From Squalus acanthias (taxonomy: Eukaryota), in NCBI GenBank assembly GCA_030390025.1, contig CM059432.1:50718001-50782000 (forward strand): DNA of 64,000 nucleotides. The letters run 5' to 3'. Within the stretch, counting starts at the first letter, position 1. Each line of letters opens with the position of its first letter. The position numbers and the translations under genes were made by a program. Below are positions 2,387-57,818 of the stretch, in pieces. Under the pieces are notes generated by a model. The model saw only the letters and a list, made by a program, of their open reading frames with translations. It was not told where the DNA came from and made no database searches.

Positions 2387-2499
2387 TTGAAACAGAAGAT
2401 AAGCACAAAATAGTAAATATTCTTAATTATTACTTGCTCCCAAGTATTCACAGGAGTAGACATGAGTAATATACTGTCCCCAAACAGATATAACCTAGG

Positions 2500-6330: not shown

Positions 6331-6615
6331 TACAATTCTGGGGTCTTGCCTTAGATATTCCCTTAGGTACAGCCGTGCTAGTCACTCCTGTAAGCGGTCG
6401 GAACGTCTTGTGTTTTGGCATGTGCCTGTACTGCCCCATATCTAACCATACAAAAGTGTAACTTAGTGGTGTGACAATAGTAACCCCTTGTGATCTGAAC
6501 TGGATACTCTTATCTTGCACAGGCATGCTTCTTCAATCTCGTCGAAGATGGACTAAGAAAATATTTTGTTGAGACCTGCTTTATTTCACAGTAAGTGAAC
6601 ATACATACCAGCAGC

Positions 6616-6655
6616 CATGATCAGATTTACTTAGTCATGATCAGATTTACTTAGT
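6616..6655. repeat. Perfect 20-bp tandem duplication (catgatcagatttacttagt)x2
   Basis: Read directly from the sequence. Confidence 0.85.
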
Positions 6656-7678
6656 TCAATCATTGCAAAATTTCTTTGCGTAATAATGCAAGATAATGAA
6701 CATGCTTTGCATCCCCACGTAAGTGTGTCATCTTACTTGACTTAACACAACCTCCCGTGTGCTAAACTTCTGAGCCAGGCCAAAGCTGGTCTTCACAGCT
6801 TTCTGTTTATAACCTGACTGACATTACAGCCTTTGCTGACCTGACTGACTGCCTATGTCCCTGTTTTTATAGCACGCAGTGTTCACAGCCAGAAAGGCCC
6901 AGAGACTTTCCAACACAAGGAGTGTGAAACAGGCTAATTAATTATTTATTGTTTACGATCTATAGGAAAGCAAAATCAAAGTTTAGCTCATTATGATTTT
7001 AATTACTTTTTGCCTTTTAAAAAAAACTTATGTGAATACACTTTGCTTTAAAAACTGACCTTTAAAAGTAACTATTTTTCTTTCCAAATCTTATTTGTAG
7101 GAAATGAGTCAATAAAGCTCTTAAAATGTGATAGCCTCCTGCATCTGTAATTATCTTATGGTTCTGTGATTATAAATTTTGAATTATAAGGGAGCAGAGC
7201 AAGTTGTTAATGTCAACTATCGGGACGGTACTGAGCAGAGGTCAGCATGTCCCCAACAGGGGGGAAGATGGGAGAGATAGAAAACAATGACAACGACATC
7301 CTGGGACATTTTGAAAACCTTTGAATGAGCACTTAAAGACTATATTAACAAAACAAAAGAGGTTAATAATTAATCTTCAGTGGAGATGATGCAAGACAGT
7401 TTGTTAGAGAAGAAAATGGGAGAGAGAAAAAAGGGAGAAGGAAGGGAACGGTTACAATAGGACAACATGAGTTGTGCATTACTTAAATACCAAATGTTCT
7501 TGAATAAACATGGTCTTCAAATAGGAATCCACAACTCAGTACCACAACTAGTAAATGTCCGGTGGTCCTGAAAACAACCACCTTTATATTATAGATAAAA
7601 GTGAAAAGCACAATAAAGACACAAATATATTTTGTGAATGAAAGGACATTCAAGGATCTGGAAACAGTAACAACTTAC

Positions 7679-7797
7679 CGATCCTAACTTAAAGGGTCTC
7701 TTACAGCCACCACAGAATTCATACTGACATTCTGAGCAAGTAAAATGAATACAACCCCCTCTGGACAGGTCAAATCGAACTCTGCAATTAGGGCACT
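7679..7797 (-). CDS. Exon, catalytic RING2 ([40 protein letters not shown])
   Basis: ctgctttag|AG...TCG|gtaagt; 119 nt, phase 1->0; GGCIHF corresponds to HOIP GGCMHF (catalytic Cys/His). Confidence 0.95.
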
Positions 7798-10700: not shown

Positions 10701-13700
10701 ATTTATCGTATGTATTTTTTTCCGTCAAAACAGTAAAATTCTACCTGACAAGCAAATCTTGTCAGTAGCCCACAGAATAAGGGCGCAATTTGATGACTAC
10801 AGTTGTGTCTGTGGCATGCTAAAAAATTAAGTTAATCTATAATTATCAGCTGCTGTTAGGTGCAAATATAGTTACCTAATCCATTTTGGGTGAGGTAGAT
10901 GTCTAGTTTGCTTGCCTGATACTCAGGGTTATTCTGCTGCTTCCATATCTTAAACTTTTCGCAGCTGATCCCTTCATGCTGTTGCTCCCACTGAGGAAAA
11001 AAAACATGAAGCATCATTGGTCATAGTTCTGTGAAATCTCCACAACAGCTGGAATGCAGATCAATTAAATACAGATAATTATACAGTCCAACAGATTACT
11101 TACAGGAATCTTGCATTGGAAGCATGAGCTTTTTTCACAAGAAGGACAATCCATTCTCAATCTATCTATCTCATGCAACAGTCCAAAGGAACACTGAAAG
11201 AAACAATATAACATTTAGCATAGAAACCATGTTCAGTATAAAACTTAGCTTAATGCAATTTCAACTAATTCCAATTTGTATTCCAAACTTGATCAAATAA
11301 TTTTGCCTCAACCATATGGTTGCCATATGATGTTTGTTTCTTTGGTAGACAGGAAATTAAGGAAGTCAAGAACTGCGATCCACAGCCATTACTCACAGAC
11401 ATGCCTATCTACACAGTGGCTCATCGTTTGAAGCCACAATGGTTAAAGTGTTCAGACAGCCTCCATAGATTCGGTGCAGAGATCATGGAACAATTCTACA
11501 ACTAACAAATACAAATATCTAAGTTCTAATACAAACAATCAGTATAACTAATCTTGCAAATGAACTTAACTAAAAAGATGCAAGAGAGCCATGCTAGTCT
11601 TTTTAAAAATCTAATTCTGCCATTTTGAAACCATTATCTGCAAAACTGCAGCTGTGCATTTCCACGGCGTGGTGTGAGAGTTGGATAGGCACTCTATTAA
11701 ATCTGTAACTGTACGTAGCTCTGGAGTATTGTGGAGACAGTGGAATCTTATAGGCAGAAAGTGCTGAAATATAAAATGGAAATAAAGAATACATTTCAAT
11801 GTAGAAATGTAAATCCAGAGCTCCCCTGAGCTCAGCGGATAAATGGACCACCTAGTGTAGTACAGAGTCACATAAACCAGAAAGGTCCCTAGTCTGCGCA
11901 GAGTTATGTGAACTCAGCCAAGGCAGAAGTGGGGCACTATAAATGGTTTCTACACCCTAGACTAGGGAGGAAGAAATAAAACAGCCAGGATTCCCACCTC
12001 TGATGATTGCCCAGGTGTCTAGATATTGGGTATAGCCTGGATTAGCCTCAGCTGTGATGTCCCTACAGCCAAATAACTTACCAACACTCAGGGCTAGAAA
12101 TTCATCATAGCCCAGAATGGGCGGTATCATTAGAAAAGTTGGAGAATTAGCGCCAGGCGCTAATGCTTTAGACTGCATGCAAAATTCGCGCTCATTGCTC
12201 AAAAAAATGATTGGAGTCCTAATTCAAGTCTTTAAGCCCAAGCTCATTGGTGTTACACTCAAAGGCTGAGGGGGTCGTTCGGCCCGACTGCCTGCCTCTC
12301 TTCCACGGCCACGTTCGCGCCCAGGTGGTCCTGGAGATGGAACACGGGGTGTCCGCCGGCACGCTCGAGGCCTTCCGTGACCGGTGGGCACCGGAGGGAC
12401 TGGAGTGCATCATCACCCCCGGCAATAAAATTTTAATTTAAGTTGTTAAGTTTACTTTAATGTTTTTTGTTAAGTTACAGTTTTATTGTTTATTGTTCAA
12501 ACCAGAAGAGTACACTCAAAGGGTGGACCAATATCAGGTGCAGTCTAATCACAAGTCATGATTGTCACAGGCTTTTTTCAGTACTTAAAGGGGAGGTTCA
12601 TTGATGCTGCAGAATCTAATTTTCAGCATTGCTGGCTATGCAGCTGTCTCAGCAAGCAACAGCAGGTCAAGGAGAAGGAGCGGAGGACTGAAGCAACTGT
12701 ACGCATGGCAGATCCACGCCTCAGGGAGAGAGCCTGCAGATTCTGCGATTAAGCACTGTAGGCGTTGGTGTTCGCTGTGGAAAGACGGAGGGCAGTGCTC
12801 TACCCAGCAAGTGGCAGGAGGCCCTCGCCGCAAGTCTTCCGCACCATGTGGAGGGAGGCAGTGCAGCACGTCTTGGGCAACACTGTGGTGCCAAGGACCC
12901 ACACACAGTGCAGGAAGATATTTAACGACCTCACTCGGGTTGTCAGGGTGAGTGAATGCTTCAACAAATGCTACATAACACCATCTGAACCACAGTCTTC
13001 ACACACTGCCCAAAGCACCACACCCCCAGCACTCACCCACCAACAATCTCTACCTACCAACACACACACCCACATCTCAAACCTTGCACACAATGACAGC
13101 TATTCAACTACGGCAGGCACATCACCCAAACACATTGTTCCACGCTCACTCACACACTTTCCTTTCTCTTGCAGGCCAAGGTGGCTCACAACAGGAGGGA
13201 GCAGGAGCGCATAGGCAGGGGACAAGCCGACAGACAACAACTGTCTGCGCTGGAAAATAGAGTGCTGCAGATTATTGGGCGCCAGGTGGTGGGCGCCGTG
13301 GCCAATGGCGACATTGACCCCCTTAGGGACACTAACTGTATGTTCATCCCTACTCCTTCTTCTCACACCCAACTTCCCTCTGACCCCACAACCCTTTCAC
13401 ACTTTCCATCCAATCATGGTGTATGCATGCATTTCTCTCTTCCTGTCCCGCTCCCCTCACCTTAACCCGACTCTTGTGCCTTTATGCTTTCAGATAATGA
13501 GCAAGCACCTGAGCAGCCTGTCCCTGAGGGCACTGTAAAAAGCGAGGGAGGGGAGAAGAGGAGGAGGAACACACCGCGTCACTGCATGTTCTCACCTGCA
13601 GGCACCAGCTCAGATCCTGGCACTACGCGTTCTTTAGAGGCTAGTATAGTAGCGGGATCTGCACAGGGTAATGCACCGGGAACGAGCGGGCTGCAGCAAG

Positions 13701-16700
13701 GCAGGTGGAAAGGGTAGCTCGGGGGCCAGCTCCCTGGAGGGTGAGTTCATGCGTGAGTTCTGTTGCACAGAAATCAGATGAGGACCTCGATGGGGAGGCC
13801 TTTAGAAGAAGGGTGATGGGCATGCACATGGAGATGATAGGTGCAATGGAAAGGTGCCTGAGAGCCATTCGGCAATGATAAGGAGCGTGGAGGAGTCCGC
13901 CTCCAACATTGCACAAGGCTCTGCGCACACCATGGAGCCCATAATTTCCAGTCTGCAAAGGATGGTAGACTCCCAAAGAGACCGTGGCGACCCAGACCAG
14001 ATGCCGCGTGTGATGGGCAATCTGGCAGCTTCCATTGCAGCACAGGCGGAAGCGACGCAATGTCTTAGTGCTGTAATGCAGTCTCAGCTTGATGCCACGC
14101 AAGCTCTGACTGCTGCCATTTTGGCTTGGTCTACCACCATCGACTCAGGCTTTCACTGTGTCACAGCAGGCCAGCAATGGGACACCCGCTCAGCCGAGTA
14201 CTGAAGGGTCAAGGCAGTGGAATCATTGCTTGAGCACCCCGATGGTCTGCTCGATGATGTTCCTGGTGGCAGCATGGCTCTCATTATATGAGTGCTGGGC
14301 AGGTGTGGTGGGGTTGTGGAGGGGAGTCATGAGCCAGGTGGAGAGTGGATAGCCGTTGTCTCCGACCAGCCAGCCGCGAGCTTGACGTGGTGGCTGGAAG
14401 AGTGCTGGCACACCGGTCTGGCGCAGGATGAAGGCATCGTGGCTGCTGCCAGGATAGCGGACATTCACATTGAGGATTCGCTGTCTGTGGTCACACACCA
14501 ACTGCACATTAAGTGAGTAGTAGGCTTTGCGGTTACGGAAGATCTCAGGATTGTTATGCGGTGCCCGGAAAGCCACGTGGGTGCAGTCAGTGGCGCCCTG
14601 TACCATGGGGAATCCCGCTATCCTGGCAAAGCCACATGCATGCTCGTCCTGCTTCTCTCTGGTGATAGGGAAGGAAATGTAGTTCCTTCTCCTACTGTAG
14701 GGAGCCTCTGTGACCTCCTGGATGCAGCGATGGATGGCAAACTGCGAGATGATCCCTTTAAATAACGTCCCTGGAGCAGGCTTCTTGCTGCTTCACACCA
14801 GCTCTCCCTGTCGCGGTTGACTCTAGGCGCTAAGGTAGGTGGTGACAATCAATTTCGCAGATTGGGCGCTCAGTGGGCGTTGCACATTCACTGATGTTAC
14901 GATCCACCTGGTGTTGAGGCTCCTGGTGATAACTGTTAGCGGTGGCACTGTGGGGGCGGGATTTGGCGATAATGCTCTCGCGCCCCGTTAGCTCCATCTG
15001 CTGGCGCTAATGGGAGGCGCTAAGGTACCGAATTTTTCCCCCTCACTGTCTTGCCTCCAACATAAAGAATGGTCATGAGCAAGGTAGTTGAGGACTACTG
15101 ACACCCATGCAACTGAGTGCCAGCAAGAGTTATCGCTTTCGGGAGTGGAAGGAAGAACATAGGAACAGGAGTAGGCCATTCAACACCTCAAGCCTGTTCT
15201 GCCATTCAATTAGATCATGGCTGATCTGTATCTTAACTTCATCTACCTGCCTTGGTTCAATAACCTTTAATATCTTTGCCTAACAAAAATCTATCAATCT
15301 CAGCTTTGAAATTTTCAACTGACCTAGCCTCAACAACTTTTTGGAACATAGGATCATAGAAAAAATGTAAAAATCCAACACTGAAAAGTACAAATGATTA
15401 CAAAAATAAAATCTCTATTGGGTGTCTTGTTTGAGAAAAACCTTTCTAGATCGAAATGTAACAAGCACAAACATTCTTACATGTGCACACCATCTGAAGT
15501 TTGGCATTTCCATCAGAGTTCGGTCTCGAAGTTTTCTTTGAAACAACTCATGAGTTTCTTTGTCAAGATAATGGCGAATCTAATTGTTAAAAAAAACACA
15601 GATTTTTCAGTTCATCAAAATTTTCTTTAAAAAATGAAAAGATACACAGATAGGTACTTCATTATTAAAACTACAGAATTAAACTTTTCAAAATAAATTT
15701 TTTATGCAAGTTTAGTAGAATTGTCACACTTCAAATTTTCTTCCATTTCCATCCTGCAAAGTCACCTGGTTTGACATACATTGTTTTCGAACCACAAAAT
15801 AAATAATGTTTGTATTTAGGTTTTAAATCACTAGTCATGATGCGCGATCTGCCCGCGCCTGTTGAAAGTACTGCAGGCAGCACGCAAAATTTGTGCTGCC
15901 TGCTCATTAACATGATTAAAGTGCTGAGCCCAACACGTTGCTAGTTGGCTCAGCGCTCAGCAGGGGGCCCAATATCATGGGAGGTCTGCTCTGTATTTAA
16001 AGGTTGCCTGCAGAGTGAAAGGCTGTCTGCACTTCTTAAAGGGAAGGTGCTTTGTGTGAGAAGTACCTCATTCTGACTAGAGCGAAGCAAAGGGGAAGTT
16101 AGCAATGTCACAACACGGCAGAGAAAGGGCACCTCGGTTCTCATTGCAGGCCTTGGTGCAGGGGGTCGATAGGAGGAGACAGGTCCTCTTCTCGTGGTGG
16201 GCCAGAAGGCCTTTTAGACAGAGTGTACGAAGGCAGTGGGAGGAGATAGCTGAAGCAGTCAGTGTCATCAGTCTTTCCCCCAGGACCTGGATCCAGTGCC
16301 GGAAGAGGTTTAATGACTTCACACGAGTGGTCAAGGTGAGTGAATGCCATATCAAATGCCATATTCCACCAACTGCACCACTAGCCTCACACACTGCTCA
16401 ATGTACCACACCTCAATCACTCACCTACCAACAATCTCTATCAATCACCACTCATACCCCACAATCATAGCTTCACCTCACATACTTACCACTGTTGCAA
16501 GCCTCAGATGCACATCTCACACAATGCCAGCTATTCAACCATGACAGTGACATCACCCAAACACACTGCACCACACGCACTGACACACTTCACCCAAACA
16601 CATTGCACCACACGCACTGACACACTTCACCCAAACACACTGCACCACACTCACTGACACACTTCACCCAAACACACTGCACCACACGCACTGACACACT

Positions 16701-19700: not shown

Positions 19701-22700
19701 GGAACAACGACATCGAAAATGGCAGGTCATGCGTCAAATCAGCATTACACGCTGACTGACATCACGATCTGCCTACTTTACATTCTGTCGGCGCACGCAC
19801 GTCCCACCCATGCTATCGCCCTCACCAAGATGGTGACCGGCGGAAGCAAGACATCCGCCATTTTTTTTCTCCAAACTGGCCTTAACTGCCAACGCTAAGG
19901 TGCCAAATTTCATGGCCAATATGTTTTACAAGAATAAACTTTAAAAAAATGTCAATCAATATAATTCAAAGTTTTGCAGCTCGCAAAATATCTGACAAGT
20001 TTAAGTCAAGTGGATTGGTTACTTTAAAAAAAATAAATGTTACACAGACTGAACACTTCTGTCACTCTCTCACAAAAAATTCCCATTAACAAAAAAAGAG
20101 CGACCGTATTTATCAATTCTGCTACTATGTCTATCTGAAGTCTTTTACAGTTTGCCAAACCTCATACTTTTGAGTCTTCCATTGCTTACTCTTATTCACA
20201 TAGTTACACAACTTATTTCCTGAACTAAGCTTCTGATATAATCTACTCTCTGCTAACAACTTTTCTGGATTTTTCTTCTCAGATTTTAAAACTCCAACCT
20301 GAATATCCAATAAATTGAAGTACTCTGTGATATCCTCTTGGAGTTGGTGGCTTTTCAGATCAGGTGTACTACACATTGGGCAAACCACGCTAACAATATT
20401 TTTTTCCTTTATGACTGATGAAAAATACTTCTTAAAACAGTCTTCACAGAAAGAACAGCTACAGTGTACCATTTTGATAATCTACAAAAATAAAAGTATA
20501 AGGATTTTAATCAACATGTCATTTAAATAATAAACCACCAAAATAATTTATCTAGTTCAATGCAAGTCATTTAAGTTAAACAAACTATAGAAAGACAGCA
20601 CTCACACACTATACAATATATATCCACAATCAAGTTTTAAAAAAATGTGATCCAGATTTAAGAATTACATAATGCATAGATAACACACACATTTTATTAC
20701 ACAAGAATAACACTGATTGCAGTTCTAAAACATACACTGAACATGATTAATAGATGGAAGTGATTATTGGCCAGCAGTCTAACTTGGGATTCAGAGGATG
20801 TTTAGAAGCTGCTACAACCTTCGCTGAATATTCTTAATTTCCACTGTTCCATATGCAACTTTTTTTTTAATGTATTTGGAAAGCAGTGTGCATTTTAAAG
20901 CAATAGCAAATTACAACCTGTGCATCACATAATGAAAAACAGAATGCTTTACAAGCTGATTAATTAGGCTACTATATGAATAAGCAAGCAGAGGACCCAC
21001 AAGTTCAATGAGGGCCTGGAGGAAGTTTACTGATTAATTCCCCGAGAACCCCTTTAAATCATTTGGTGATTTTAAGTGCTAAGCAAGGCAACAAATGTCA
21101 GGACAATGAAGGAATCAGTATCCACATCAAGCAATTACAGCTTGGGTACAGCATGGTCAGGTGCAGAATGAAGCTCTTTCTACTCTGCCTCAACAGTTTA
21201 CCTTACGGCCAAGCTCAAAAGACCACCCCTTGTGCACCAGTGTCAATCTTTCCATTTCCCACACAAGCTTTATTTCACCTATGCCTACAAAGCACAATTG
21301 AGATACATAAACTGTAACAGTTTGTGACTGAACAAAATAATTAAATTTCCAAGTCAGTATTCTAATAACAGTGTACAACTTAACCAGTTAGAGCAGAAGA
21401 TGTGCTCTACTGTCTTAGTACTCTTGGATGATAGGAGTTTTGGGGCTTCCTAGCAAACAGGTAATTATATCAATATGCCTGGTCACAGGGTAGTGCAGCA
21501 TGGGGGAACATTGCTGTATCATGTCACAGAGCAGTCACACAAGGGTTCATGTCCAATGATGTGGTGGGTTAAAAGGGGAAGATGGATTTTTTTTTAAATT
21601 GCCTAAAGGACTGTAAACAACAGATGGCTTTAAATGGGGTAGTTTCCTAATAGGGGACAATCATGAATGGGCTTGCTCCAGGGTTCAGTACTGGGTCCCT
21701 TTCTGTTCATTATATTCATTAATGATCTGGAGGAGGACATAAGCAGCACAGTCATTAAATCTGCAATGACGCCAAATTGTTTGGAAGAGTCTAGGAAAGA
21801 GAAATAGACAACTGGATTTGGATAGATTGTGGAAGTGGGCCCAAGACTCGCAAATGTCCTTCAATATCACCAAGTGTGAAGATATGCACGTGCATATATG
21901 AGGGCATAGAACATAACATGAGTCAGGTAGAGGTAACTGAATGGGAGAAAAAGTTCAAGCTCAGTGTTGGAAAGTCATGACCAGAGCTAACAGAACCCTA
22001 AGCTGTATTAGCCAGACCATGAAAATAGGATTATTTAAAGCTTTTCAGCTTTAAAGGAATTTCAGGCAGAGGGCTGCTGAACTGGTCACATATTTTTCTC
22101 TATCAGGAGGGAAGGGAAGGGATGGTTGGTGCACAGGAATAAAATCAGCTGAATGATGTGGGCAAGCACGTATGGGTCTGAGGGCTTTTGTGTGCCCTGG
22201 ATACATAAATACATAAAACATAACATCAGAAGCTAACTACTTCATACTCAGCTCTGCACAAGGTACAAGTGTGCTGCATGGGTCATAGATTTTGCAAGAG
22301 CAAATTAGTGCTGCCTGATACTACACAGCAGAGCCAAGAATTCTATACATTATACCATACCTTGCTAAAAGATACTTGTTCACTGCAAATGGGACACTCA
22401 TGAGAAAGATACCGCACAGCTGTTTCGTAATTTAAACCAGACTGCACAACTTCCATCACATCCTCAACATTGAAATTCTGGTCTTGAAGGCTCAGTAAAC
22501 TCTGAAAAATTTCTGATTTTTCCTTTGACAGACCAACAGGAATCGATGACAAATTTAGCTGTGAATTGAAAAAACAAAAACCCCTCTGTGATTAAGAGGA
22601 AAAACTTCCTTTGTAACCTAAAAAAGTCTATTTCACAATGATCTAATACTTACCTTCGACATGGTATCTGCTATCACAGTAAATAAGTAGGTGTTAAAAC

Positions 22701-40700: not shown

Positions 40701-43700
40701 CGACAGTAAATTGATACTTTACCTTGCGAAAGAGCAATTGGGGTTGGATTATTTAAGCAATTTATAAATGATGTTCTTATATCTTCAATAAGACCCACCA
40801 AATGCGATGCTGGCTAAAGAAAGCAGAACCATCCAGTAAACAATAAATAACAATGAAAACCCTTATTGCCTAGACCTTGAACTTTGAATTTTTACTTCAC
40901 AGCAATTACTTTACTGCACCTTTCCTCAACCCAAGTCAAAATTGTATTTTAAATTTTCCCATTTAAAAACACACTCTTAAACTATCCTCACACCACCTTT
41001 GGAATAAAATATTTATAAAATTCCATAATAATCCTATTCTACTACTGCTCTTGCATAGCACTTTCACTCTTGTATTCTATTGCACTTGGAGAAACTCAAA
41101 TATATCTTGAACAAAAAAGTATCTATTTGGTTGTCATTAAAACAGCTTTACAGTGAAAAAAAACAGTGGCAGACTTTTCTTTAACATCATTTGATATATA
41201 TTTGGTGGGACAAATTAGCTGGCCTGGTATTTTTATTGTACATGGAGATACACAAAGATTAAAAAACACCACTGTGTTCTGGGGAGGGTGAGAGGGAGAG
41301 ATTGATTCTGATTTAGCAAGTGTTTTCATCACAAATGAAATTACTGGATCATACCTTAAAACGTTTGCCACAACCCTTATAAAATATACTGATTAGGTTG
41401 TGAAGACATTTGAAAGTAGCTGCTATGAGGACCAGTGTAATGTATGTTCCTGCAGCAATCCCACAGCTATCAATATGTGTACAATTGAGAACTAAATCCA
41501 ATGTTACACCCACTGGGATGGGAAAAAATTCACTTCTACTCAATTTCTATGTTTAAAAACATTACAACAGGTGAATGTACAATTTAAAAAACCTGATACT
41601 TCATTATTTTAAACACATTCTTAAACTAGTATCACACCACCTTTGCAACGCAATGTTTATAATATAATTATAAATGTCACTTTGGCATAATTTGACATGG
41701 TCTGATCATTGAATAATATATCTGATATGTGCTTAGTGAGTATCCTCTACCAATTCTCATGTTCAAAAAGGACTAGGTTAGACATTCTACTAGAAACTTG
41801 GTTAAGTTAAATATACTATTGCTATATTCAATAACTTATGTGCTATTGTATTCAAGTTATCAAGTAACATACAGTCTCAGGTCAGAATTGTTGTGTTTAA
41901 ATTTGCCAAAACCAGAGCATTTCAAACATCCATCGATTCATCTCATTACTTTGAGAAGAATCGTCTTTACTGAGCTTTGGCTTTTGCTGTATGAACAAAA
42001 TTATAACATGTATTCTTGCTTACGTATTTCCAGTTGCATAAATAACTTGAAGACATCATGCCGGTGTTATCGATATGAATTCCAGGATTTCGGCACGGAA
42101 TTGGTAGCCCCTTCACAAAACATTTTGGTGGATTCAGGGGGTGTGCGTTATGCAACCAGATGCTTACTGGAACATTATAAATTAGGCCTGAATATAAACA
42201 CATTTGCACATTGTTAAAAAAAATAGTAAAATTTGTGAGATCCATCCATGCCTGGGGGTATCTGGTTTTATCTCTTTGGCTCTAAATTTAAAGGTTTTTT
42301 TAAACTTACATAAAACATTTGTTTTCCATTCTTTCTTGTTTATTCAACATGATTCACTAACCTGACCCACAGAGGAGCCACAAAACATAAGACTTGTGAG
42401 TTAATATTGGGTATGGTAGGATTGTGGTTATGTTACTGGACTAGTAATCCAGAGGCCTAGACTAATAAACCGGAGGCGCGAGTTCAAAATCCCACCACGG
42501 CAGCTGGGGAATTTAAATTCAATTAAATAAATCTGGAATTAAAATGTTTGTATCAGTAATGGTGACCACGAAACTACCGGATTGTTGTAAAACCCATCTG
42601 GTTCACTAATGTCCACAGGGAAGGAAATCTGCCGTCCTTACCTGGTCTGGCCTATATGTGACTCCAGACCCACAGCAATGTGGTTGACTCTTAACTGCCC
42701 TCTGAAATGGCCGAGCAAACCACTCAGTTGTATTCAAGAAAGATGGCCCACCACCACCTTCTCGAGGGCAATTAGGGATGGGCAATAAATGCTGGCCTTG
42801 CCAGTGAGGTCCACATCCCATGAATGAAAAAAAAATTTTATTAAAGTTAATAGACTGTTTCTTGAATTGTTAATCTAGGGGGAAGGAACTGGGTGGTACA
42901 GTGGATTAGATATTAACCTTTCAACAGGGTTTGAATCCTGGCCAGATGAGTTGTGATAGAAAAGTCTCCCCAGACTGATGTCTGTACAGGGCATTTCACA
43001 ATTTGTCTTATTATACTTTTGTGAAGTGCCTTGGTACGTTTTCCTACATTAAACATGGTACATAAATGCAATTTTTGTTATTGTTGACATTAGTTTAGGG
43101 AATCTTAATTCAATTCCTTGTGGCACGCGCACAAACACAAAACTGCCCAAATAAAGAGGTAATTGGCACTAACTACATTAGCAATCTCACTTAGAGGGAC
43201 TGGTGTGGGGAGTCGATAGCTGACCTTAGCATGTTTGATCTTCACACTGAATACCCAAAACTTAAAGGGGGAAAAATTTGGTTCCTTAGCGCCTCCCGTT
43301 AGCGCCCACGGGGCACAAAGCAACTAACGCCCGGGCACGGCGATATTTGCGGCACTCGCAAAATTGACCAGACATTTTGCGGCGGCGCTAAACACTACTG
43401 CTACGATCTCCTGCGCCCGCAGAGCGTGACGTCAGTCGAGTGTGCAACGCCCCGGTAGGGCCCCGGACCGGATATTGAGTGGCGCTCCCTGCCTTTCCGC
43501 CTGCCGCTAGCAACGACAGGTTGAGGGGAACGTTTTGCAGTCGGGAAAGGACTGGGGGAGCGCTATTTAAAGGCGGCCGCTCCCTGCCTTTTTTTGTCGG
43601 CGACATTTTTGCACCACGGATTCTGAGAGAGAGACTTCTGGAGAGGTTCAACGCTGTGTGAAGGAGTTTTGGGTACTGAGCAGCATGTTGCAGGTTCATT

Positions 43701-46700: not shown

Positions 46701-49700
46701 CTGCTCCTGCAACTGTGCAGGGGCAGACTCGGCCATCGGGATCCGATGAAGAATGTGGGGCTCTGACTGAGGGGGAGGCAACGGGGGAGAAGTGGGAGAG
46801 CTTTGAGAAGAGTCCCCACTTCCATGTCCCCTCTCACCATCATCCCTCTCATGGGCCACCCGCACTTCCCTGCTAGCAAGGAGCTGGAGAGCACCTTGCT
46901 GCACAGCAGTGGGGCGATGGAGGCCCAAGTCTACATTTATATCCCTCCTAGAGATGAGGTCTATGAGCATCTGCCATCTATTGTCCACAGCTAACATGTG
47001 CTCATGTGACTGGCGCATTGGCTGCTCCATGGGAATTGGATAAGTACCCGAAGGAAAAAAGTTTGCAGGGCTATGGGGAAAGGGCAGGGGAGTGGGACTA
47101 GCTGAAGTGTTCTTGCAGTGAGCTGGCACGGGCTCGACAGGCCGAATGGCCTCCTTCTGTGCTGTAACCATTCTATGCAGGTGACCATCCTTTCCATGGA
47201 ACAGCACATCGTCGCCATCGCCTGCGAGATGGTGGTGCTCATTGTAGAGATGGGCTCCTCCATTCTTACACATTTGCAGACATCACAGCTGCAAAGGCTG
47301 CCAGAGCCTCTTGCAAATGTTGCTGCTTCTCCAAGATCACCCTCTTTCTCGATGGCCCCCGAGGCTCAGTGTCTGCATGCAGCTCAGCTGAGTTTGTTGC
47401 GTCCTGTGCTCTCCGGCGATGAGTCTCCACTGCTGTTCCTGTTAACACCATCTGCTCTTGCTTACTTGTGAAGTGTGAGACACCAGGTGACAACACTACT
47501 CTATCTCGCACAGGACCCACCGAGGTGTTCGTATCTGCGCTGGTGCTGGGTGCGCTTGGGGCTGCTGATGGTGCAGCCTCAGAGGCTGGAGGTTCCTCTG
47601 AGGAGTCATCTTCCTCCTCCAGCCGGATAGCTGGGGGGGGGTGGGGGGGGGGGGAGGCATTTTATGGACCTGTGGGAGAGTACAGAGATGAATTGGTAGC
47701 GCTTTAATAAGAATGGGTAATTTTTACCATTACGTACATGATGGCATTTCACTGGCTGCTGACATCAGTCACCATGAGTGAGCCCTGCGTGCTCTCACTG
47801 CCTCCACTGGAATATGCAGGGATGCATCAGAAAATCGGGGTGCCGCCCTCTGCCTTTGACTAGCCATCATTTATGGATTAGAGCAGTACTCAGACCTTTG
47901 TATTTCACCTTCCACACTCCTCTAGCAATCTTCAAATGAGGGCAAGGCTGCTTTAAATACTGGCGCTGGAAACGAGTCATTGATTACATCGTCAGACCCG
48001 CTCCATTTAATTGGGCCGGGAAACGCGCATGACTGCTTTAAGTGGGGCCATTAAGTTAAAGTCGCCCCGAAGAACGCACTGAGCAGAACATCGCGTTCCC
48101 GACCCGCACACACCTGACCCGACTCCACGGTAAAGATTCTGGCCCAGCAGTTCACCAGGAGGCTCAGTCCAGTGAAAGATAAAATCCAACTTCAACCTCA
48201 GCAGTGTTTCTCAGATAAAGTTTCCCAAGACTGGAAAAGCACATCCACGGAGGGAAGCCCGAATTTAACTCTTAGTCCAAATTGCCATCTATTACAGATC
48301 TAACACTCTAATGTAGCTACCATATTATGCTGTCTTACCACTGCATGGCACAGGAATAGTACCATTCAAATTAACCAGTTTATTTTTAACACCAGTTCCA
48401 TAACCTGGAAGGAAAAGGAAAATATATTTTCATTAAGTGGATTAAAGAAATTTATCAATCTACAATGATTTGACTCAGCTACTTTCACTCAGGCATATAG
48501 GGCCGGATTTTAACACCCAAAAACGAGTGGGTTGGGGTCGGGTCAGAGGTTAAAGTTTTAAAAATCTCAAAACCTGACCCCAACCCCCGCCCACTTCTGG
48601 GTTTAACGGAGGTGGGACAAGGGGCGGGCAGTCAACCTGCTCCCAGGAGGCGGGTTGGCAATTTAAATATTTTAATCAGGCTGGCAGCCTCTGATTTAAC
48701 CTGTTTTCAAGGTTTATCCCTGGCCTGCCAGATTTTGCAGGCCTCGGGGAACCCGGCAGCTAAAGGGAGGCGAGGACTGCTTCAGGGAGAAGGTAAGTGC
48801 CTTTACAGCACTGCTTATGGGCCAGGAGGAGCAGGATTGCTTCCTCCCGGCCCCCCAAGTCCACCTCCCATACAAAGACCCCCGGGGTCAGGGATCTGAC
48901 CCCCCGGGGTCATGGATCGGATCTACCTGGACTTGCTGCTTACTCCAGAGTCCTCCCCGTCCGAATGGAAGCCAAGTCTGTCAATCAGGCTGACTTCCAG
49001 GTGGGGAACCAGTCAAGGACAAAAGACACACGCTAACCTGGACTTCCGGGTTTACCGTTCGAAACACTGCGCCCCCGCCTACATAACCCGCCCCTGTTAA
49101 TATCCAGGCCATATACTCTAATATCAGAGAATTATATATAACAATGTTAGAGGATAAACTGTTTTACATAGGATTACATAGGATATACGGCACAGAAACA
49201 TATCCCTTGTAAAATGGAATATATCAGGGCCACTGATTTATGATTGTGATGTCAAATTGTATTTTCATTATAGAGTACTGTCAGTGTGTTTGTGGTATTT
49301 TCAGGCTCAAATGTCGTGATTGTGCACATATTTACTCAATCTGCAGTTTGATAAGGAGTGGATTATATGGTGTAATGGAGATGGCGATGGTTTAATTACA
49401 TTAGGGCTCACATTTTTGAATGCTCTGCTAGCCAGCCTCTCTGCCTCAAAAGCTTCAACTTCCTCAAAACAGTGTAGCTTGCAACTTCACCCAAGCAAAG
49501 TTCTGCACTCGTATTACATAGAACATACGGCACAGAAACAGGCCATTCGGCCCAACCAGTCTATGCCGGCGTTTAAGCTCCACTCGAGCCTCCTCCCGTC
49601 TTTCCTCATATAACTCTATCAGCATAACCCTCTATTCCCTTCTCCCTCATATGTTTGTCTAATTGCCCCTTAAATGCATCTATACTATTTGCTTCAACCA

Positions 49701-52700: not shown

Positions 52701-54599
52701 TTTTAATCATGTATAGGAGAACAATTAAATGTAATTTATCCATCTCTATGTAAACAGTAAACCATTACTTACAATAAAAGTCAAAACACACAGAGAGGTC
52801 TCTGTACATTGCATGTACATTGTTAAGTTCTTTCGCAACCTCTGCTGGATAAAGATATGAATACTGTGAAAGAAAAAGAGAGATCATTTGCAACATTGCA
52901 TATCATTACAAGGTCAAAACATAATTTCCTCTTACTGTTTAGTTTATCATTCCTAAATTTTTGAAAATCTACAAAAACAAACCTTATATAGTATATAATG
53001 TAAAATTTCATTCCAGAGGTTTTTTTTTTAAAATGGTGCTGGGAAGTGAAGCAGGTAAGGATGCTGCTCTTTGTCTTCTGGGAGGTGATGCTGAAATAAC
53101 CCAGACTGCTGAGATAAGCTTCCTCTCCCAGCTTCAAGGATCTGTTGTGAATGATATGGATAGCCTCAACCTTATTCCTAATGCATGTCAGTCCCCAACA
53201 TAAAACTGGTCATTATTACAAATGCTATGTTTGAAGCTGTGTCACTTTTAGGAATCTATTTGGTGCCCGAGAACAGCGTGGCCTGTTCCTCCTTTGATTG
53301 GTCTGTGGCAATCATATATTGAGGATTCCATTACTTTTCCAGTAACACGACTGGGCTGTGGGAACCACAGGGCAGGAACTTGCTGGATTTATTTATTTTT
53401 TCTAAATATAGGCAGCCACTCCTAATCCTAATCCAATCTATACTGAGTAACAGGTTCCCCTTTGCCTGGCATGATTCTCCATTTTCTAACTAGCCTACCT
53501 TCCTACTCAATCGCTTCCTCCCATCAGTGGTTGCAAGTCCCAATCTCCTTTTCTCCAAGTCTTGTTGCCAAAGTGAGCTCTTGTGCCACTGCCAGCCCAG
53601 ATATACCCTTACGCTGAAGTGCTACAGCTAAGTAATAGCTTCAGAGCACAGGATCTCTTATTTTCCCTTTAGCACTGGCTGGCTGTGCCACCTCCATGGA
53701 GGTGATTTTGCCAATGGGGAGCTTTTGGAGGCGGGACTCCCACTTGTCGGGTTTCAGTCCCGCCTCCATCAACTTCTGGCCAACCCACGCCATTTTCCCT
53801 TGATTGAGCTTGTTAAGCCCGCTCAGCGGGCTTAGCAGGCCAATTAAGGGAAAGCCAGTTGCAGAAAATGTCAACGTATGACGTTTCATCTGTCAAACAT
53901 TTTTGACAGATGAATTGTCATCGTTTGACAGCTCTGTGAAGCTGTCAAACAGTGACATTCTCTGTAGTTTGATGAGGTCTTGAATTCAAGACCTCATCAA
54001 CCTTCTTTCTTTTGCAGAAATGAGATGGTTGTTGCATCTGAGAATGCAACAGCCATCTCTCATCTCTACCGCGGAGGTGCGAGACTCTCCGCATACCCAC
54101 CGACTGAAGCCTGCAGGAAGAAACAAAGGTAAGTATACTTTTTCTAACGCTGTACACTTACCTCAGATACTCACCTCTCCACACTTGCACCCATCACTCA
54201 CCTCCACAGCACACTTTTGGACCCCTCTGACCCCCGCAGACCCACTATTTGCCTCGGTGACCCTGGCAGGTTTCGGAGCCTTCAGGAAGCCCGCACTTGT
54301 GTGGGCAAAATGGAGATAAGCCTATTTTCTGCCTGTTAACAGGCAGTTAAGTGGCTTTAATCCCTTCCCGCCTCCAAGGAGATGGGACCCGGCGCGGGAC
54401 GGCTACCCACCTCCTGGCAAGATAGCATGGAGGCGGGTTGGGCACCCGCCCCCAATTTCTGTCATTTCCCCCGACAATCCCGCCTCCAAACCCGCCTCCC
54501 CAGGGCTGGCAAAATCCAGCCCCATATTTCCTTCCATAAGAGGTGCCAAAGAGCCAAGCCTTGTCCTTACCTCGGTCAATAACATCTCCACAAATTTGT
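7679..54599 (-). CDS. Multi-exon gene span (partial): UEV + Ser/Pro linker + NID/RRM-like + HOIP(RNF31)-type RBR E3 ubiquitin ligase
   Basis: About 20 minus-strand exons with AG/GT boundaries and compatible phases; translations match, by eye and from memory, TSG101 UEV, RBM43/NMI-type RRM and RNF31 RBR. The join across the linker is inferred. Confidence 0.75.
8063..10495 (+). mobile_element. CR1 LINE 3' portion (8063-8627, tail resumes 10420-10495), interrupted by an antisense CR1
   Basis: [34 protein letters not shown]; non-coding tail continues after 10420. Confidence 0.8.
8628..10419 (-). mobile_element. Young 5'-truncated CR1 LINE with uninterrupted 570-aa RT ORF2 fragment
   Basis: ORF 8705..10417 with all RT motifs, FADDTK; (ctatgtt)n tail at 8628-8640. 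Confidence 0.97.
10496..10666 (+). mobile_element. CR1 LINE 3' tail fragment
   Basis: gggaatcaagggatatgggga...ggcggagcaggctcgaagggcc...cctgctcctatttcttatgtt. Confidence 0.8.
10876..10990 (-). CDS. Exon, IBR end and linker ([38 protein letters not shown])
   Basis: tttcctcag|TGG...TTAG|gtaact; 115 nt, phase 0->1; resembles HOIP WEEQHRGRSCEDFQNWKRMNDPEYQAQGLAMYLQENG. Confidence 0.95.
11104..11193 (-). CDS. Exon, IBR ([30 protein letters not shown])
   Basis: tctttcag|TGT...CCT|gtaagt; 90 nt; resembles HOIP CSFGFIYEREQLEATCPQCHQTFCVRCKRQ. Confidence 0.95.
12091..15042. mobile_element. Harbinger/PIF DNA transposon, internally deleted (Myb/SANT gene +, DDE transposase remnant -)
   Basis: 3-bp TSD TCA; TIRs GGGCTAGAAATTC / [27 protein letters not shown] (Myb/SANT); [36 protein letters not shown] (DDE_Tnp_4 type). 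Confidence 0.92.
12266..12510 (+). mobile_element. 5'-truncated Tx1/L1-type LINE 3' end inserted in the Harbinger
   Basis: 12-bp TSD tacactcaaagg (12254-12265, 12511-12522); peptide [17 protein letters not shown]...[12 protein letters not shown] resembles the Tx1 ORF2 C-terminus. Confidence 0.7.
15155..15352 (-). mobile_element. CR1 LINE 3' tail fragment
   Basis: ggaacaggagtaggccattc...gatcatggctgatc...aaaaatctatcaatctcag, shared with the other minus-strand CR1 tails. Confidence 0.75.
15481..15579 (-). CDS. Exon, RING1-IBR linker and IBR start ([33 protein letters not shown])
   Basis: acaattag|ATT...CAT|gtaaga; 99 nt, phase 0->0; resembles HOIP LFHKKLTEGVLMRDPKFLWCAQ. Confidence 0.93.
16552..17103. 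repeat. 37-bp minisatellite, about 15 copies (cacccaaacacaYtgcaccacacKcactgacacactt)
   Basis: Read directly; lies in the first intron of the Harbinger Myb gene. Confidence 0.95.
18838..18953. mobile_element. 116-bp hAT-type MITE inserted in the Harbinger transposase
   Basis: 8-bp TSD atcatgac; TIRs caatgttcccttta / taaagggagcattg. Confidence 0.85.
20299..20481 (-). CDS. Exon, RING1 of HOIP-type RBR
   Basis: tttttgtag|ATT...CAG|gttgga; 183 nt; [31 protein letters not shown] resembles HOIP CECTICPDCFRQHFTIALKEKHITDMVCPAC. Confidence 0.95.
21620..22020 (+). mobile_element. Decayed CR1 RT fragment
   Basis: cagggttcagtactgggtccc (QGSVLGP), attaatgatctgg (INDL), tctgcaatgac remnants. Confidence 0.65.
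22361..22558 (-). CDS. Exon, HOIP-like pre-RING helical (UBA-like) segment and start of RING1 (ECPIC)
   Basis: aattcacag|CTA...AAG|gtatgg; 198 nt, phase 0->0; [11 protein letters not shown]...YLSHECPIC resembles HOIP YELGDVVEAVR...LLAQECAVC. Confidence 0.92.
22770..22933 (-). CDS. Exon, NID/RRM-like domain second part ([27 protein letters not shown]...CQTQ)
   Basis: tttattcag|TT...CAG|gtaggt; 164 nt, phase 1->0; completes the RRM-like fold (VAxxVxxxxxH...L.V). Confidence 0.88.
23767..24036 (-). CDS. Exon, NID/RRM-like domain of RBM43/NMI/IFI35/PARP14 type, first part
   Basis: ttcttgaag|GT...AAAG|gtacaa; 270 nt, phase 1->1; RRVHVLKIP...[25 protein letters not shown]...GSAVITFDD is the family signature (DKLxIxFQxxxNGGGEV). 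Confidence 0.9.
24797..24916 (-). CDS. Exon ([40 protein letters not shown])
   Basis: ttatttgatag|AT...CAAG|gtagca; 120 nt, phase 1->1; inside ORF 24627..24953. Confidence 0.72.
25108..25828. mobile_element. Non-autonomous Harbinger-type MITE (same family as 53698-54522)
   Basis: TSD CAT; TIRs gggctggatttt / aaagtcgcccc; collinear with 53698-54522. Confidence 0.85.
25846..26106. mobile_element. Penelope-like inverted pseudo-LTR hairpin with degenerate minimal hammerhead ribozyme cores
   Basis: About 130-bp imperfect inverted arms; centre CTGACGA-(stem II gtc/gac)-GAAACGTT on + and CTGATGA...GGAACGTT on -. Confidence 0.75.
26634..26792 (-). CDS. Linker exon ([16 protein letters not shown]...[10 protein letters not shown])
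   Basis: gtatttcag|AT...AAAG|gtacat; 159 nt, open only in phase 1->1. Confidence 0.7.
26867..26912 (-). CDS. Candidate linker exon ((FFL)[12 protein letters not shown])
   Basis: Donor ACTG|gtaatc; two possible acceptors (exon start 26912, phase 0, or 26902, phase 1); 74-nt intron to the next exon. Confidence 0.4.
27682..27706 (-). CDS. Candidate 25-nt linker micro-exon (RSPVELQM)
   Basis: Strong donor ATG|gtaagt; acceptor tactgttag is weak; phase 2->0. Confidence 0.3.
28948..28977 (-). CDS. Candidate 30-nt linker micro-exon
   Basis: ccctttccaacag|TTCTG...CATTA|gtaagt; open in phase 2 ([10 protein letters not shown]) and in phase 1; no homology support. Confidence 0.4.
29226..30124. mobile_element. 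Harbinger-type MITE with an internal minisatellite
   Basis: TSD GTT; TIRs ggcctggatattaac / gttacaatccagccc; inverted homologue at 48500-49110. Confidence 0.85.
29424..29712. repeat. G-rich minisatellite, about 44-45-bp unit, about 6.5 copies (ggtaggtccgattcccaaccccggggggaggtatccaatcccgg)
   Basis: Read directly; gives repetitive translations in the ORF track. Confidence 0.85.
30458..30527 (-). CDS. Candidate linker exon ([23 protein letters not shown])
   Basis: cttttacag|CC...CCAAG|gtaata; 70 nt, phase 1->2, open. Confidence 0.55.
30685..31045 (+). mobile_element. L2-type LINE 3' end
   Basis: gccttcagc...cctaagctctggaa (AFS...PKLW), cttaaaacc...ctcttt, tgtgaagcaccttggg...aggtgctatataaatgcaagttgttgtt tail. 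Confidence 0.7.
31181..34210 (-). mobile_element. CR1 LINE, near-complete ORF2 (APE + RT), frameshifted
   Basis: ORFs 33008..33925 (YRPP, GDFN, SDH), 32016..32937, 31254..31950 (FADDTK, WNSL). Confidence 0.95.
34240..34605 (+). mobile_element. Deu-domain SINE (SacSINE1/AmnSINE-like)
   Basis: B-box-like gggttcaagtccc; ttcagatgagatgttaaa...aaagatcacatggcgctatttgaag...gtcctggtcaatt core recalled for DeuSINEs. Confidence 0.7.
34828..34931 (-). CDS. Candidate linker exon ([35 protein letters not shown])
   Basis: gcttttcag|T...TGGC|gtaagt; 104 nt, open in phase 2->1, compatible with its neighbours. Confidence 0.6.
35472..36202. mobile_element. Harbinger-type MITE with an AT-rich core and internal hairpin
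   Basis: TIRs gggccggatttt / agtatctggccc; flanks att/aat; hairpin at 35687-35746. Confidence 0.7.
37396..39232. mobile_element. Harbinger-type MITE split by a CR1 insertion
   Basis: TIRs ggccgtgattttgc / gcaaaatcacggcc; flanks tat/tac; shares blocks with 25108-25828. Confidence 0.8.
37548..38517 (-). mobile_element. Young 5'-truncated CR1 LINE (near-identical to 62110-64000)
   Basis: ORF 37640..38683 from INDLDEG to EKAGTGY; same 3' UTR as the 62110 copy. Confidence 0.95.
39566..39608 (-). CDS. Candidate linker exon ([14 protein letters not shown])
   Basis: gtcttttag|CA...CCAAG|gtaagc; 43 nt, phase 1->2, open, Pro/Ser-rich. Confidence 0.55.
40723..40813 (-). CDS. Exon, UEV C-terminal helix ([30 protein letters not shown])
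   Basis: ttctttag|CCA...CAAG|gtaaag; 91 nt, phase 0->1; matches TSG101 PQSDLLGLIQVM. Confidence 0.88.
42024..42187 (-). CDS. Exon, UEV core ([55 protein letters not shown])
   Basis: atattcag|GC...TAC|gtaagc; 164 nt, phase 1->0; inside ORF 41967..42245; matches TSG101 [23 protein letters not shown]...HVDANGKIYLPYLHEWKH. Confidence 0.95.
42409..42835 (+). mobile_element. tRNA-derived SINE with a LINE-derived 3' tail
   Basis: A/B-box-like tgtggttatgtt...gagttcaaaatccc; tail gggcaattagggatgggcaataaatgctggccttgccagtga...catcccatgaatgaaaaaaa as at 2290-2386. Confidence 0.78.
43267..44139. mobile_element. Non-autonomous Harbinger element related to 12091-15042
   Basis: TSD AAA; TIRs gggggaaaaattt / gaatttctccccc; tagcgcc subterminal repeats shared with 12091-15042. 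Confidence 0.85.
44604..48144. mobile_element. Harbinger/PIF transposon, decayed (transposase + about 45140-46290; Myb-gene remnant - about 46530-47870)
   Basis: TIRs ggccagaatttt / aagattctggcc; flanks cat/cag; [33 protein letters not shown] in shifted frames. Confidence 0.9.
47040..47178 (+). mobile_element. Short CR1 3' tail inserted in the Harbinger
   Basis: gcagggctatggggaaagggcagg...ggccgaatggcctccttctgtgctgtaaccattctatg. Confidence 0.65.
48339..48404 (-). CDS. Exon, UEV domain ([22 protein letters not shown])
   Basis: ccttccag|GT...AGTG|gtaaga; 66 nt, phase 1->1; matches TSG101 RELMNLTGTIPVPYRG. Confidence 0.92.
48500..49110. mobile_element. Harbinger-type MITE (inverted relative of 29226-30124, no minisatellite expansion)
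   Basis: TSD ATA; TIRs gggccggattttaac / gttaatatccaggcc. Confidence 0.85.
49514..52050 (-). mobile_element. CR1 LINE, 5'-truncated, same subfamily as 3254-6035
   Basis: ORFs 49606..52012; RT motifs; same 3' UTR. Confidence 0.95.
50582..50777. mobile_element. Penelope-like insertion: perfect 75-bp inverted repeat with a hammerhead core
   Basis: 12-bp TSD ttctgtcttgaa; arms 50581-50655 and 50668-50742; minus strand CTGAGGA-A-GGGGC..GCTCC-GAAAGCTT. Confidence 0.8.
52372..52525 (-). mobile_element. Deu-type SINE 3' fragment
   Basis: Reverse complement matches the 3' half of 34240-34605 (cattgctg..tgtgggacc..gctgtgcacaaat...gctttgggacatcctgag). Confidence 0.6.
52773..52863 (-). CDS. Exon, UEV domain ([30 protein letters not shown])
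   Basis: ctttcacag|TAT...TATT|gtaagt; 91 nt, phase 0->1; resembles TSG101 YKYRDLTVRETVNVITLYKDLKPVLDSY. Confidence 0.88.
53698..54522. mobile_element. Harbinger-type MITE (family of 25108-25828)
   Basis: TSD CAT; TIRs ggaggtgattttgcc / ggcaaaatccagccc. Confidence 0.85.
54571..54599 (-). CDS. Exon, UEV N-terminal helix ((D)KFVEMLLTE)
   Basis: tattttcag|ACAAA...GAG|gtaagg; 29 nt, phase 1->0, joins the next exon in frame; positioned like TSG101 ...LKKMVSK|. Confidence 0.6.
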
Positions 54600-54621
54600 C
54601 TGAAAATATAGGTGTAGAGCA

Positions 54622-54815
54622 TGGTCCCACAAAGAGCAATGACTTATGACCAGGTAACCTGTTTTAGTGATGTTGGTTGAGGGATAAATACCAGTCAGGA
54701 CATCAGAACTTTCCTGCTCTTCTTTGAGATGTGCCATGGATTCTTTTATGTCCACCTTAGATGCAGAAGGAGCCTTGGTTTAACATCATAACTGAAATAT
54801 GGCACCACTGACACT
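54622..54815 (-). mobile_element. Deu-type SINE core fragment just upstream of the 54571-54599 exon
   Basis: Reverse complement gatgttaaaccaaggc...aaagaatccatggcac...tttatccctcaacc matches the Deu core. Confidence 0.6.
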
Positions 54816-55002
54816 ATCAGCAGGGATACTTTGAAAGCAGCTCCGATAACTATTAGTCAAGTGGTGTAGAAATAAGCAATTTTAAGTTCACAATTGGTAT
54901 TTAGTTCAAAATGGTATTTAGAAGACCGTTCTCAAAAAGTTAACAGCTCCAAGAGTGCAGTATACACCACTCCTCACTGTAACCCCAGATCCCATTGCAG
55001 TA

Positions 55003-57816: not shown

Positions 57817-57818
57817 TA

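Follow-up and report, generated by a model that had tools for sequence, protein, structure and literature searches.

HOIP, encoded by RNF31, is the catalytic subunit of LUBAC and has been described as the sole known linear-ubiquitin ligase (PMC5090701). The protein carries PUB, B-box and ZF/NZF domains and a UBA pair upstream of its RING1-IBR-RING2 (RBR) unit, which is followed by an LDD extension reported as exclusive to HOIP (PMC3463842). C885 is given as the catalytic residue (PMC6963773), and R935 and D936 are described as presenting the acceptor ubiquitin, their fly equivalents being needed (PMC5090701). Full-length HOIP is reported to be inactive until partners bind, and the RBR-LDD without the UBA to form linear chains without HOIL-1L or SHARPIN (PMC3463842). 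Drosophila LUBEL, which has a HOIP-type RBR-LDD and no PUB, is likewise reported to make linear chains at full length without HOIL-1L or SHARPIN (PMC5090701).

Here, a gene is described from a 64,000-nucleotide stretch of Squalus acanthias DNA (the window) that encodes, in order, a UEV, a Ser/Pro linker, an RRM of the RBM43/NID type, a HOIP-derived three-helix bundle and a RING1-IBR-RING2-LDD. With HOIP it shares the RBR-LDD, all zinc ligands, the equivalents of C885, H887, R935 and D936, the helical segment ahead of RING1 and the two intron positions that were tested, but where HOIP has PUB, B-box, ZF/NZF and a UBA pair this gene has a UEV and an RRM, and it falls in a separate clade and on a separate chromosome. 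It differs from LUBEL, a sole orthologue that keeps B-box, NZF and UBA domains, and no UEV was found in arthropod or other invertebrate representatives. An N-terminal UEV encoded by exons of equal lengths and phases is shared with TSG101 and UEVLD; those proteins, however, have a coiled-coil/steadiness box or an LDH-like domain, and both genes are found separately on contig C10 of the same genome. As the product has neither a coiled-coil/steadiness box nor an LDH-like domain, it is not an ESCRT-I subunit. A single RRM fold and an intron position are shared with RBM43, NMI and IFI35, but there is one module here rather than tandem NIDs. To judge from these features, the protein would work like HOIP but lacks what marks a protein as an RNF31 orthologue or a LUBAC subunit. 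The gene is best read, with a probability of roughly 0.6, as a copy of RNF31/HOIP that arose in early vertebrates and had its N-terminal half swapped by exon shuffling, and its product would be a LUBAC-independent linear-ubiquitin ligase.

Structure of the gene

The exon at window positions 20481-20299 (-), used as the starting query, retrieved 23 proteins, shark and ray models first, several of which are named si:dkey-181m9.8. The exon chain was obtained by tblastn of six of these proteins onto the window, and the borders were then fixed with the flanking DNA. The result is a minus-strand gene of 24 coding exons (2754 nt, 917 aa) with one terminal stop, no internal stop and AG/GT borders at 23/23 introns, which bears out the ordered, phase-compatible path of same-strand exons with GT-AG sites that the initial annotation of this DNA had proposed. 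Exons 2-19 lie inside the window (52863-7679, minus strand), and exon 1 and exons 20-24 lie outside it. In the following list the coordinates are those of the window, except where the prefix C8 denotes the contig from which the window was taken.

Exon 1: C8:50793844-50793800 (45 nt, ATG), minus strand; placed by homology to orthologue N-termini, in a GC/CpG-rich stretch
Intron 1, part: 52864..64000, minus strand
Exon 2: 52773..52863 (91 nt), minus strand; UEV N-terminal helix, phases as in exon 2 (85 nt) of the UEVLD-like gene
Exon 3: 48339..48404 (66 nt), minus strand; UEV, length as in the TSG101-like and UEVLD-like genes of the same genome
Exon 4: 42024..42187 (164 nt), minus strand; UEV core, length as in the TSG101-like and UEVLD-like genes; on spliced contigs
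Exon 5: 40723..40813 (91 nt), minus strand; UEV C-terminal helix
Exon 6: 39566..39608 (43 nt), minus strand; Ser/Pro linker, length sum agrees with contig
Exon 7: 34828..34931 (104 nt), minus strand; linker
Exon 8: 30458..30527 (70 nt), minus strand; linker
Exon 9: 28662..28708 (47 nt), minus strand; linker
Exon 10: 26634..26792 (159 nt), minus strand; linker with short conserved motif, missing in several orthologue models; on spliced contig
Exon 11: 24797..24916 (120 nt), minus strand; linker, short conserved helical stretch
Exon 12: 23767..24036 (270 nt, phase 1-1), minus strand; initial two thirds of the RRM (RBM43/NID-type), cassette exon that models of other species skip
Exon 13: 22770..22933 (164 nt), minus strand; RRM end and spacer
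Exon 14: 22361..22558 (198 nt), minus strand; three-helix bundle (homologue of the HOIP pre-RING1 segment) and first Cys pair of RING1
Exon 15: 20299..20481 (183 nt), minus strand; RING1
Exon 16: 15481..15579 (99 nt), minus strand; RING1-IBR helices and start of IBR
Exon 17: 11104..11193 (90 nt), minus strand; IBR
Exon 18: 10876..10990 (115 nt), minus strand; IBR end and linker to RING2
Exon 19: 7679..7797 (119 nt), minus strand; RING2 with catalytic Cys722 and His724 (HOIP C885 and H887)
Intron 19, part: 1..7678, minus strand
Exons 20-24: C8:50717711-50711782, left of the window, minus strand; LDD with Arg772/Asp773, stop codon

Exon 1 lies 11.8 kb past the right end of the window and scored 132, against 79 for the runner-up. 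The bounds first given for the gene were 7679 and 54599; the former is the exact end of the RING2 exon, though the gene does not end there, five LDD exons lying further left outside the window, and the latter belongs to a 29-nt stretch that orthologues do not support. This AG..GT stretch (window 54571-54599, minus strand), situated in intron 1 between two repeats, has good splice sites and an ATG with five codons, and matches no orthologue N-terminus; it could be a minor alternative 5′ exon or a poison exon. Neither AATAAA nor ATTAAA occurs within 1.28 kb after the stop codon. Compared with the six shark proteins that match it best, the product shows 73-83% identity. The proposed domain order of UEV, Ser/Pro linker, NID/RRM and RBR agrees both with the tblastn exons and with Pfam matches over the cut-off in seven orthologues (IBR, IBR_1, LDD and RRM_PARP14_1 in 7/7; UEV in 6/7; NID in 6/7), the orthologue without a UEV match being a 5′-truncated model.

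The introns contain several kinds of repeats, of which the families here called LINE and Harbinger-like are presumptive names. LINE reverse-transcriptase remnants are located at window 4417-5929, 31257-33030, 37976-38506, 49609-51813 and 62214-63998, the one at the right window end having a 595-codon open frame. Harbinger-like transposon remnants, with Myb/SANT-like and nuclease-like frames, are present in at least three introns (14226-18830, 45247-47704 and 59298-61548), and tandem arrays occur at 16553-17108 and 55263-55753 (both of 37-bp units) and at 29424-29717 (44-bp units).

The UEV, linker and RRM modules

The lengths and phases of exons 3 and 4 (66 and 164 nt) equal those of the TSG101-like and UEVLD-like genes on C10. 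Exon 2 of the genome's TSG101-like gene was not found, and identities were therefore computed over exons 3-5, across which 86 of 97 family UEVs are nearer the TSG101-like gene and 10 nearer the UEVLD-like gene. The UEV is confirmed by sequence and by fold, with a TM of 0.74-0.86 between the AlphaFold-modelled domain and TSG101 chains. M95 of TSG101 is reported to be required for PTAP binding (PMC2172688). In a numbering that presumes exon 3 to begin at residue 43, the M95 equivalent is found in 80/81 bony fish and 0/13 chondrichthyans, this gene included, and the Y63 equivalent is missing, with Cys instead, in 13/13 chondrichthyans; the ubiquitin-binding position N45 of TSG101 is not kept, being Pro in 61/81 bony fish. 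By the M95 and Y63 pattern, bony fish could plausibly have an ESCRT-type peptide pocket, but for sharks this is doubtful, and the endosomal link raised by the initial annotation is thus weakest in this very lineage. The missing coiled coil and steadiness box of TSG101, also part of the first description, are absent from the orthologues by Pfam, and the ORF runs on into RRM and RBR.

The middle module is a single RRM fold whose best Atlas match, to be taken as a lead, is an RBM43 fragment cluster (0.90, 172 features). The RRM of exons 12-13 was compared with seven NID-type exons elsewhere in the genome. It is nearest to that of a single-RRM gene 16 Mb off on the same chromosome (mean identity 46%), followed by one beside an NMI-like tandem (43%), tandem NIDs being at 26-31%; a tree of these 55 residues is weakly supported. 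The names RBM43, NMI and IFI35 for the shark loci are ones that we assume from layout. No short RRM relatives came to light in a search for them. The NID/RRM-like domain first reported therefore stands as regards the NID match in Pfam (6/7), but it is nearer RBM43-type genes than the NIDs of NMI/IFI35, and a single RRM/NID is present where NMI and IFI35 feature two in tandem.

The nearest genomic relative, a single-RRM RBM43-like gene at C8:34.75-34.76 Mb (-), has a phospholipase A2 exon on one side and a myosin-head gene on the other, and possibly represents the donor lineage of the RRM. An RRM-FIIND-CARD fusion was considered for the RRM gene at C8:34.76 Mb and rejected, there being no FIIND on C8. 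The loci C3:63.39-63.43 Mb and C13:24.05-24.08 Mb each contain an NMI-like or IFI35-like gene with tandem NIDs and, after it, an RBM43-like gene with a single RRM, which suggests that sharks have extra RBM43 paralogues.

The stretch of exon 12 is gone, to the same junction, from models of Hemiscyllium, Amia, Scleropages, Anguilla, Conger, gar and Pristis (7/7 species with a gap), and there is no internal gap between the models of a Pristis pair and of a salmonid pair. The RRM is missing from 53/109 UEV-bearing proteins, and no RRM match was seen in the spiny-rayed fish and frog members among those listed; sharks retain it. Given this and the loss of the PTAP pocket in sharks, neither module is universal, and targeting to endosomal or interferon pathways is thus conjectural. 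Any specific route, whether ESCRT/endosome or an NMI-IFI35-type complex, is less likely than not, and the listed omics papers on RBM43, NMI and interferon gave no evidence for interferon induction.

Short conserved motifs sit in the otherwise disordered linker. An NPF motif is present outside the domains in 78/125 proteins, a basic-SYT-EL linker motif in 72/125 and a leucine-rich C-terminal end in 33/125; these are possible EH-domain or trafficking signals.

The catalytic core

The RING1-IBR-RING2-LDD is 44-46% identical to HOIP, which is also its best solved-structure match, both by sequence (E 1e-101) and by fold. Residues were numbered from an alignment to PDB 5EDV and counted over 116 sequences, that is this gene and 115 of the 124 family proteins, nine partial ones being left out. 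The equivalents of C885 (aligned to Cys722 of RING2), H887, R935, D936 and D766 are invariant (116/116), the 33 Cys/His columns of canonical HOIPs are all kept in this gene and at 0.96 or more across the family, and the LDD extension (PF18091) is encoded by exons 20-24. In HOIP, roles have been assigned to H887, Q974, E976 and D983, and D766, R770, I807 and E809 form an allosteric site. The Q974 equivalent is Gln in only 26/116 family sequences, that of D983 is Glu in 88/116 and that of Y933 is His in 102/116, against positions that are invariant or aromatic in 10/10 canonical HOIPs; this shark keeps the equivalents of Q974, E976 and D983.

Upstream of the core, no UBA pair (PF16678) was detected in any of 13 family proteins scanned, versus 9/11 non-family HOIPs, and five canonical HOIP N-termini used as queries detected no PUB, B-box, NZF or UBA in the 114 kb around the gene, in line with the initial annotation; the scanned family proteins gave no PUB, B-box or NZF matches either. 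The exon 14 bundle and the stretch that precedes RING1 in HOIP are homologous (hhalign 96.9%, E 2e-10); in a structure comparison its three helices gave a best Z of 5.5 (rmsd 2.9, 53 aligned), with many UBA bundles and unrelated ones among the matches. In the AlphaFold model of a shark orthologue each domain is folded (RING1 TM 0.87 to HOIP) without inter-domain packing, the pTM of 0.31 making the model uninformative on autoinhibition.

The protein is very probably an active RBR ligase, likely to have Met1 specificity and fairly likely to be independent of LUBAC. The RBR-LDD of HOIP without its UBA is active partner-free and this protein amounts to that fragment with a new front end, from which we infer a LUBAC-independent Met1 ligase. 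It is possible, though unlikely, that the Met1 chemistry is kept while the new N-terminus (UEV, linker helices or RRM) holds the enzyme inactive, or that a partner is needed, possibly through indirect contact with LUBAC, the protein then being a conditional module. Full-length HOIP itself is reported as inactive until partners bind (PMC3463842), an unrestrained ligase uncoupled from OTULIN would presumably be costly, and the conserved motifs of the disordered linker and the retained helical bundle ahead of RING1 are consistent with such restraint. Nevertheless, the UBA pair, which is the activation route of HOIP, is absent from the locus and from all family members scanned, and LUBEL is a natural precedent for a partner-free enzyme.

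A further possibility, quite improbable on present evidence, is an active RBR ligase whose choice of linkage or substrate has drifted, so that it primes substrates or makes non-Met1 chains and the LDD is mainly structural. The variation at Q974, D983 and Y933, set against its absence from the ten canonical HOIPs, and a long paralogue stem branch (0.55) both speak for drift; R935 and D936, the residues with demonstrated importance for linkage, are on the other hand found in 116/116 sequences, and this shark also has Q974, E976 and D983.

Relation to RNF31 and origin of the gene

Contig C242 of the same genome has open PUB, B-box, NZF, UBA and RING1 exons, with up to 83% identity to ray RNF31. 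The IBR, RING2 and LDD exons of canonical RNF31 were not found in this assembly, search results setting a floor, and the only LDD matches in the genome are those of the gene described here. An assembly gap is the likelier cause, as C242 is short (107 kb), unplaced and GC-rich, and contains an N gap as well as 5-kb blocks in duplicate; RING1 lies 18 kb from its end. One duplication, of an NZF-UBA block (about 4.8 kb), straddles the 200-N gap, and a second, of 5.1 kb, lies at 70-79 kb; both are probably mis-assembly. A ray has a complete canonical RNF31. It is accordingly very improbable that this gene is the shark's only working RNF31, in place of a truncated canonical gene: the end of the C242 gene after RING1, without detected IBR, RING2 and LDD exons, and the sole LDD matches would fit, but C242 is gapped and duplicated, its exons are open, and the tree sets this gene outside the RNF31 clade, so that this counter-case, foreseen in the initial annotation, fails.

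The tree of the RBR-LDD (IQ-TREE, 27 sequences) included 11 paralogue rows, four of jawed-vertebrate RNF31 and three of cyclostome HOIP. The paralogue clade and the RNF31 clade were each recovered at 100/100, cyclostome HOIP also forms one side of a starred branch, and the split of vertebrates from invertebrates (93/92) is not starred. AU tests rejected no placement of cyclostome HOIP (p 0.18, 0.38), and FastTree with 143 rows set the cyclostomes with the paralogue at 0.89. Whichever order the three groups take, the duplication would date to early vertebrates, on either side of the split from cyclostomes; tree and neighbouring genes together point to an early-vertebrate copy that persists in cartilaginous fish, bony fish, coelacanth and frogs. 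The stem branch of the paralogue is long, and exons 14 and 15 have counterparts in RNF31 exons (207 and 174 nt) that are followed by introns at the same positions, also in phase 0.

To the left of the gene are Inositol_P (inositol monophosphatase), single-exon SBF (bile-acid symporter), ZFAND1-type and Snf7/CHMP4-type neighbours, and an FABP-like exon, of the lipocalin family, lies 243 kb to its right; no RNF31 neighbours were found on C242. We take this neighbourhood to be the FABP-IMPA1-SLC10A5-ZFAND1-CHMP4C block of human 8q21, which is paralogous to the RNF31-CHMP4A block of 14q12, in which case the gene would be an ohnologue of RNF31.

Transcription and unity of the gene

When the words of a three-exon stretch, about 37% of it exonic, were looked up, 5-38% of them occurred in each of fifteen runs from five studies; the runs are presumed to be RNA but are not recorded as such, and four of them (X1, X2, X10 and X13) were compared with the locus. 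Contig pieces from X1 and X2 stop at exon borders. Runs X10 and X13 were rejected as transcripts, since they cover introns and differ by several percent, like DNA of related species. Contig 3 of X1 contains part of exon 12 and exon 4 at a distance of 636 nt, the predicted sum of the exons between. Contig 24 of X2 (2309 nt) carries exons 14, 13, 12 and 10 consecutively, with 1044 nt ahead of exon 14 that correspond by length only to exons 15-23, and 354 nt past exon 10 that correspond, again by length only, to exons 9-6 and 90 nt of exon 5. The reach of the contigs to exon 5 and to the LDD is thus a matter of lengths, and a contig alone proves no single transcript; this evidence agrees with the open frame and with five proteins known only from Logan, in which UEV and RBR-LDD form a single ORF on contigs of 2.5-3.0 kb. 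UEV and RBR parts occur together in 109/124 family proteins (UEV and RRM in 56, UEV only in 53, RRM only in 3, neither in 12).

This is an intact, transcribed gene with a conserved architecture, and almost certainly one functional gene and a paralogue of RNF31. The initial annotation's proposal of an exon-shuffled HOIP paralogue with a replaced N-terminus is upheld by contigs that cross from UEV through RRM to RING1 and by the separate clade. That a UEV gene and an RBR gene stand here in tandem and were fused by annotation or rare read-through, the other counter-case of the initial annotation, is scarcely credible: the linker is long and poorly conserved, the introns are large and 15/124 database proteins have no UEV match, but contigs from two studies (presumed RNA) span the junctions at exact lengths, single-ORF contigs exist in other species, and the fusion is identical from chimaera to frogs.

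Range, annotation and literature

By name, the 120 matches listed of 267 comprise 16 cartilaginous fish, one coelacanth, five frogs, 92 ray-finned fish and six unnamed entries. No amniotes are among these 120, which suggests loss in amniotes, and does no more than suggest it because 120 of the 267 matches are listed. Among 144 further representatives at 50% identity six have a UEV, all named as fish or chimaera models, and no UEV was found in the HOIPs of lamprey, hagfish, amphioxus, tunicate and sea anemone, most of which keep PUB and/or UBA. A family member from the frog Mantella has repeated RBR parts and no UEV match; the copy may be rearranged, or its model faulty.

The gene is the orthologue of si:dkey-181m9.8 of the NCBI/UniRef models, with the same architecture and no difference in kind. 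These models are labelled uncharacterised and often auto-named RNF31, RNF31-like or lubel. The gene is therefore real and conserved over the jawed-vertebrate span, and already in databases as an uncharacterised model; the initial annotation was right that 'RNF31-like' fish models may exist, and its term 'hidden' was an overstatement. A 2009 survey of animal RBR ligases reportedly may mention a fish duplicate. The openly searchable literature, exclusive of subscription papers and most supplements, yielded, among the matches listed and by title or start of abstract, no study on si:dkey-181m9.8 or a fish HOIP paralogue. A salmon 'RNF31-like' protein, A0A1S3QA49, is reported to change on virus infection (PMC12575339); it does not appear in the 15 entries listed for the salmonid cluster, which has 56 members, and may belong to either gene.

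Proposed mode of action

As an exon-shuffled, LUBAC-independent ligase, the gene would have acquired exons 1-5 from a TSG101/UEVLD-type gene and exons 12-13 from an RBM43/NID-type gene, with exons 14-24 deriving from RNF31. RING1 would bind the E2~ubiquitin, from which ubiquitin would pass to Cys722 of RING2, and Arg772/Asp773 of the LDD would present the Met1 amine of the acceptor ubiquitin, yielding linear chains. Without the UBA pair of HOIP the enzyme would neither need nor bind HOIL-1L/SHARPIN; without a PUB it would not dock OTULIN, and without an NZF it would not be aimed at NEMO in the usual manner. Its site of action would be set by the UEV, through a pocket for P(S/T)AP-type peptides kept by bony fish and lost by sharks, and also by the RRM/NID interaction module, which could be switched by splicing.

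A wider form of this proposal, which we regard as doubtful, is that the gene provides jawed non-amniotes with a second Met1 writer outside LUBAC and OTULIN, that its UEV aims it at P(S/T)AP proteins on endosomal, damaged or budding membranes and its RBM43/NID module at interferon-type complexes, and that amniotes lost it.

Biological implications

With this gene, the animals that carry it may have another path to the immune signal of linear ubiquitin. That zebrafish-type fish, salmonids, sharks and frogs conserve a further HOIP-type core, one lacking the parts for LUBAC assembly and OTULIN docking, raises the question of whether vertebrates can form Met1 chains independently of LUBAC; if the gene does encode a writer outside LUBAC, HOIP mutants of fish and frogs would still form linear chains. 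The protein would be a natural, re-targeted Met1 ligase, as predicted from sequence, for which the question becomes that of its target. Many models of the paralogue being auto-named RNF31, 'RNF31' hits in fish omics and 'RNF31' knock-downs in fish may concern the wrong gene.
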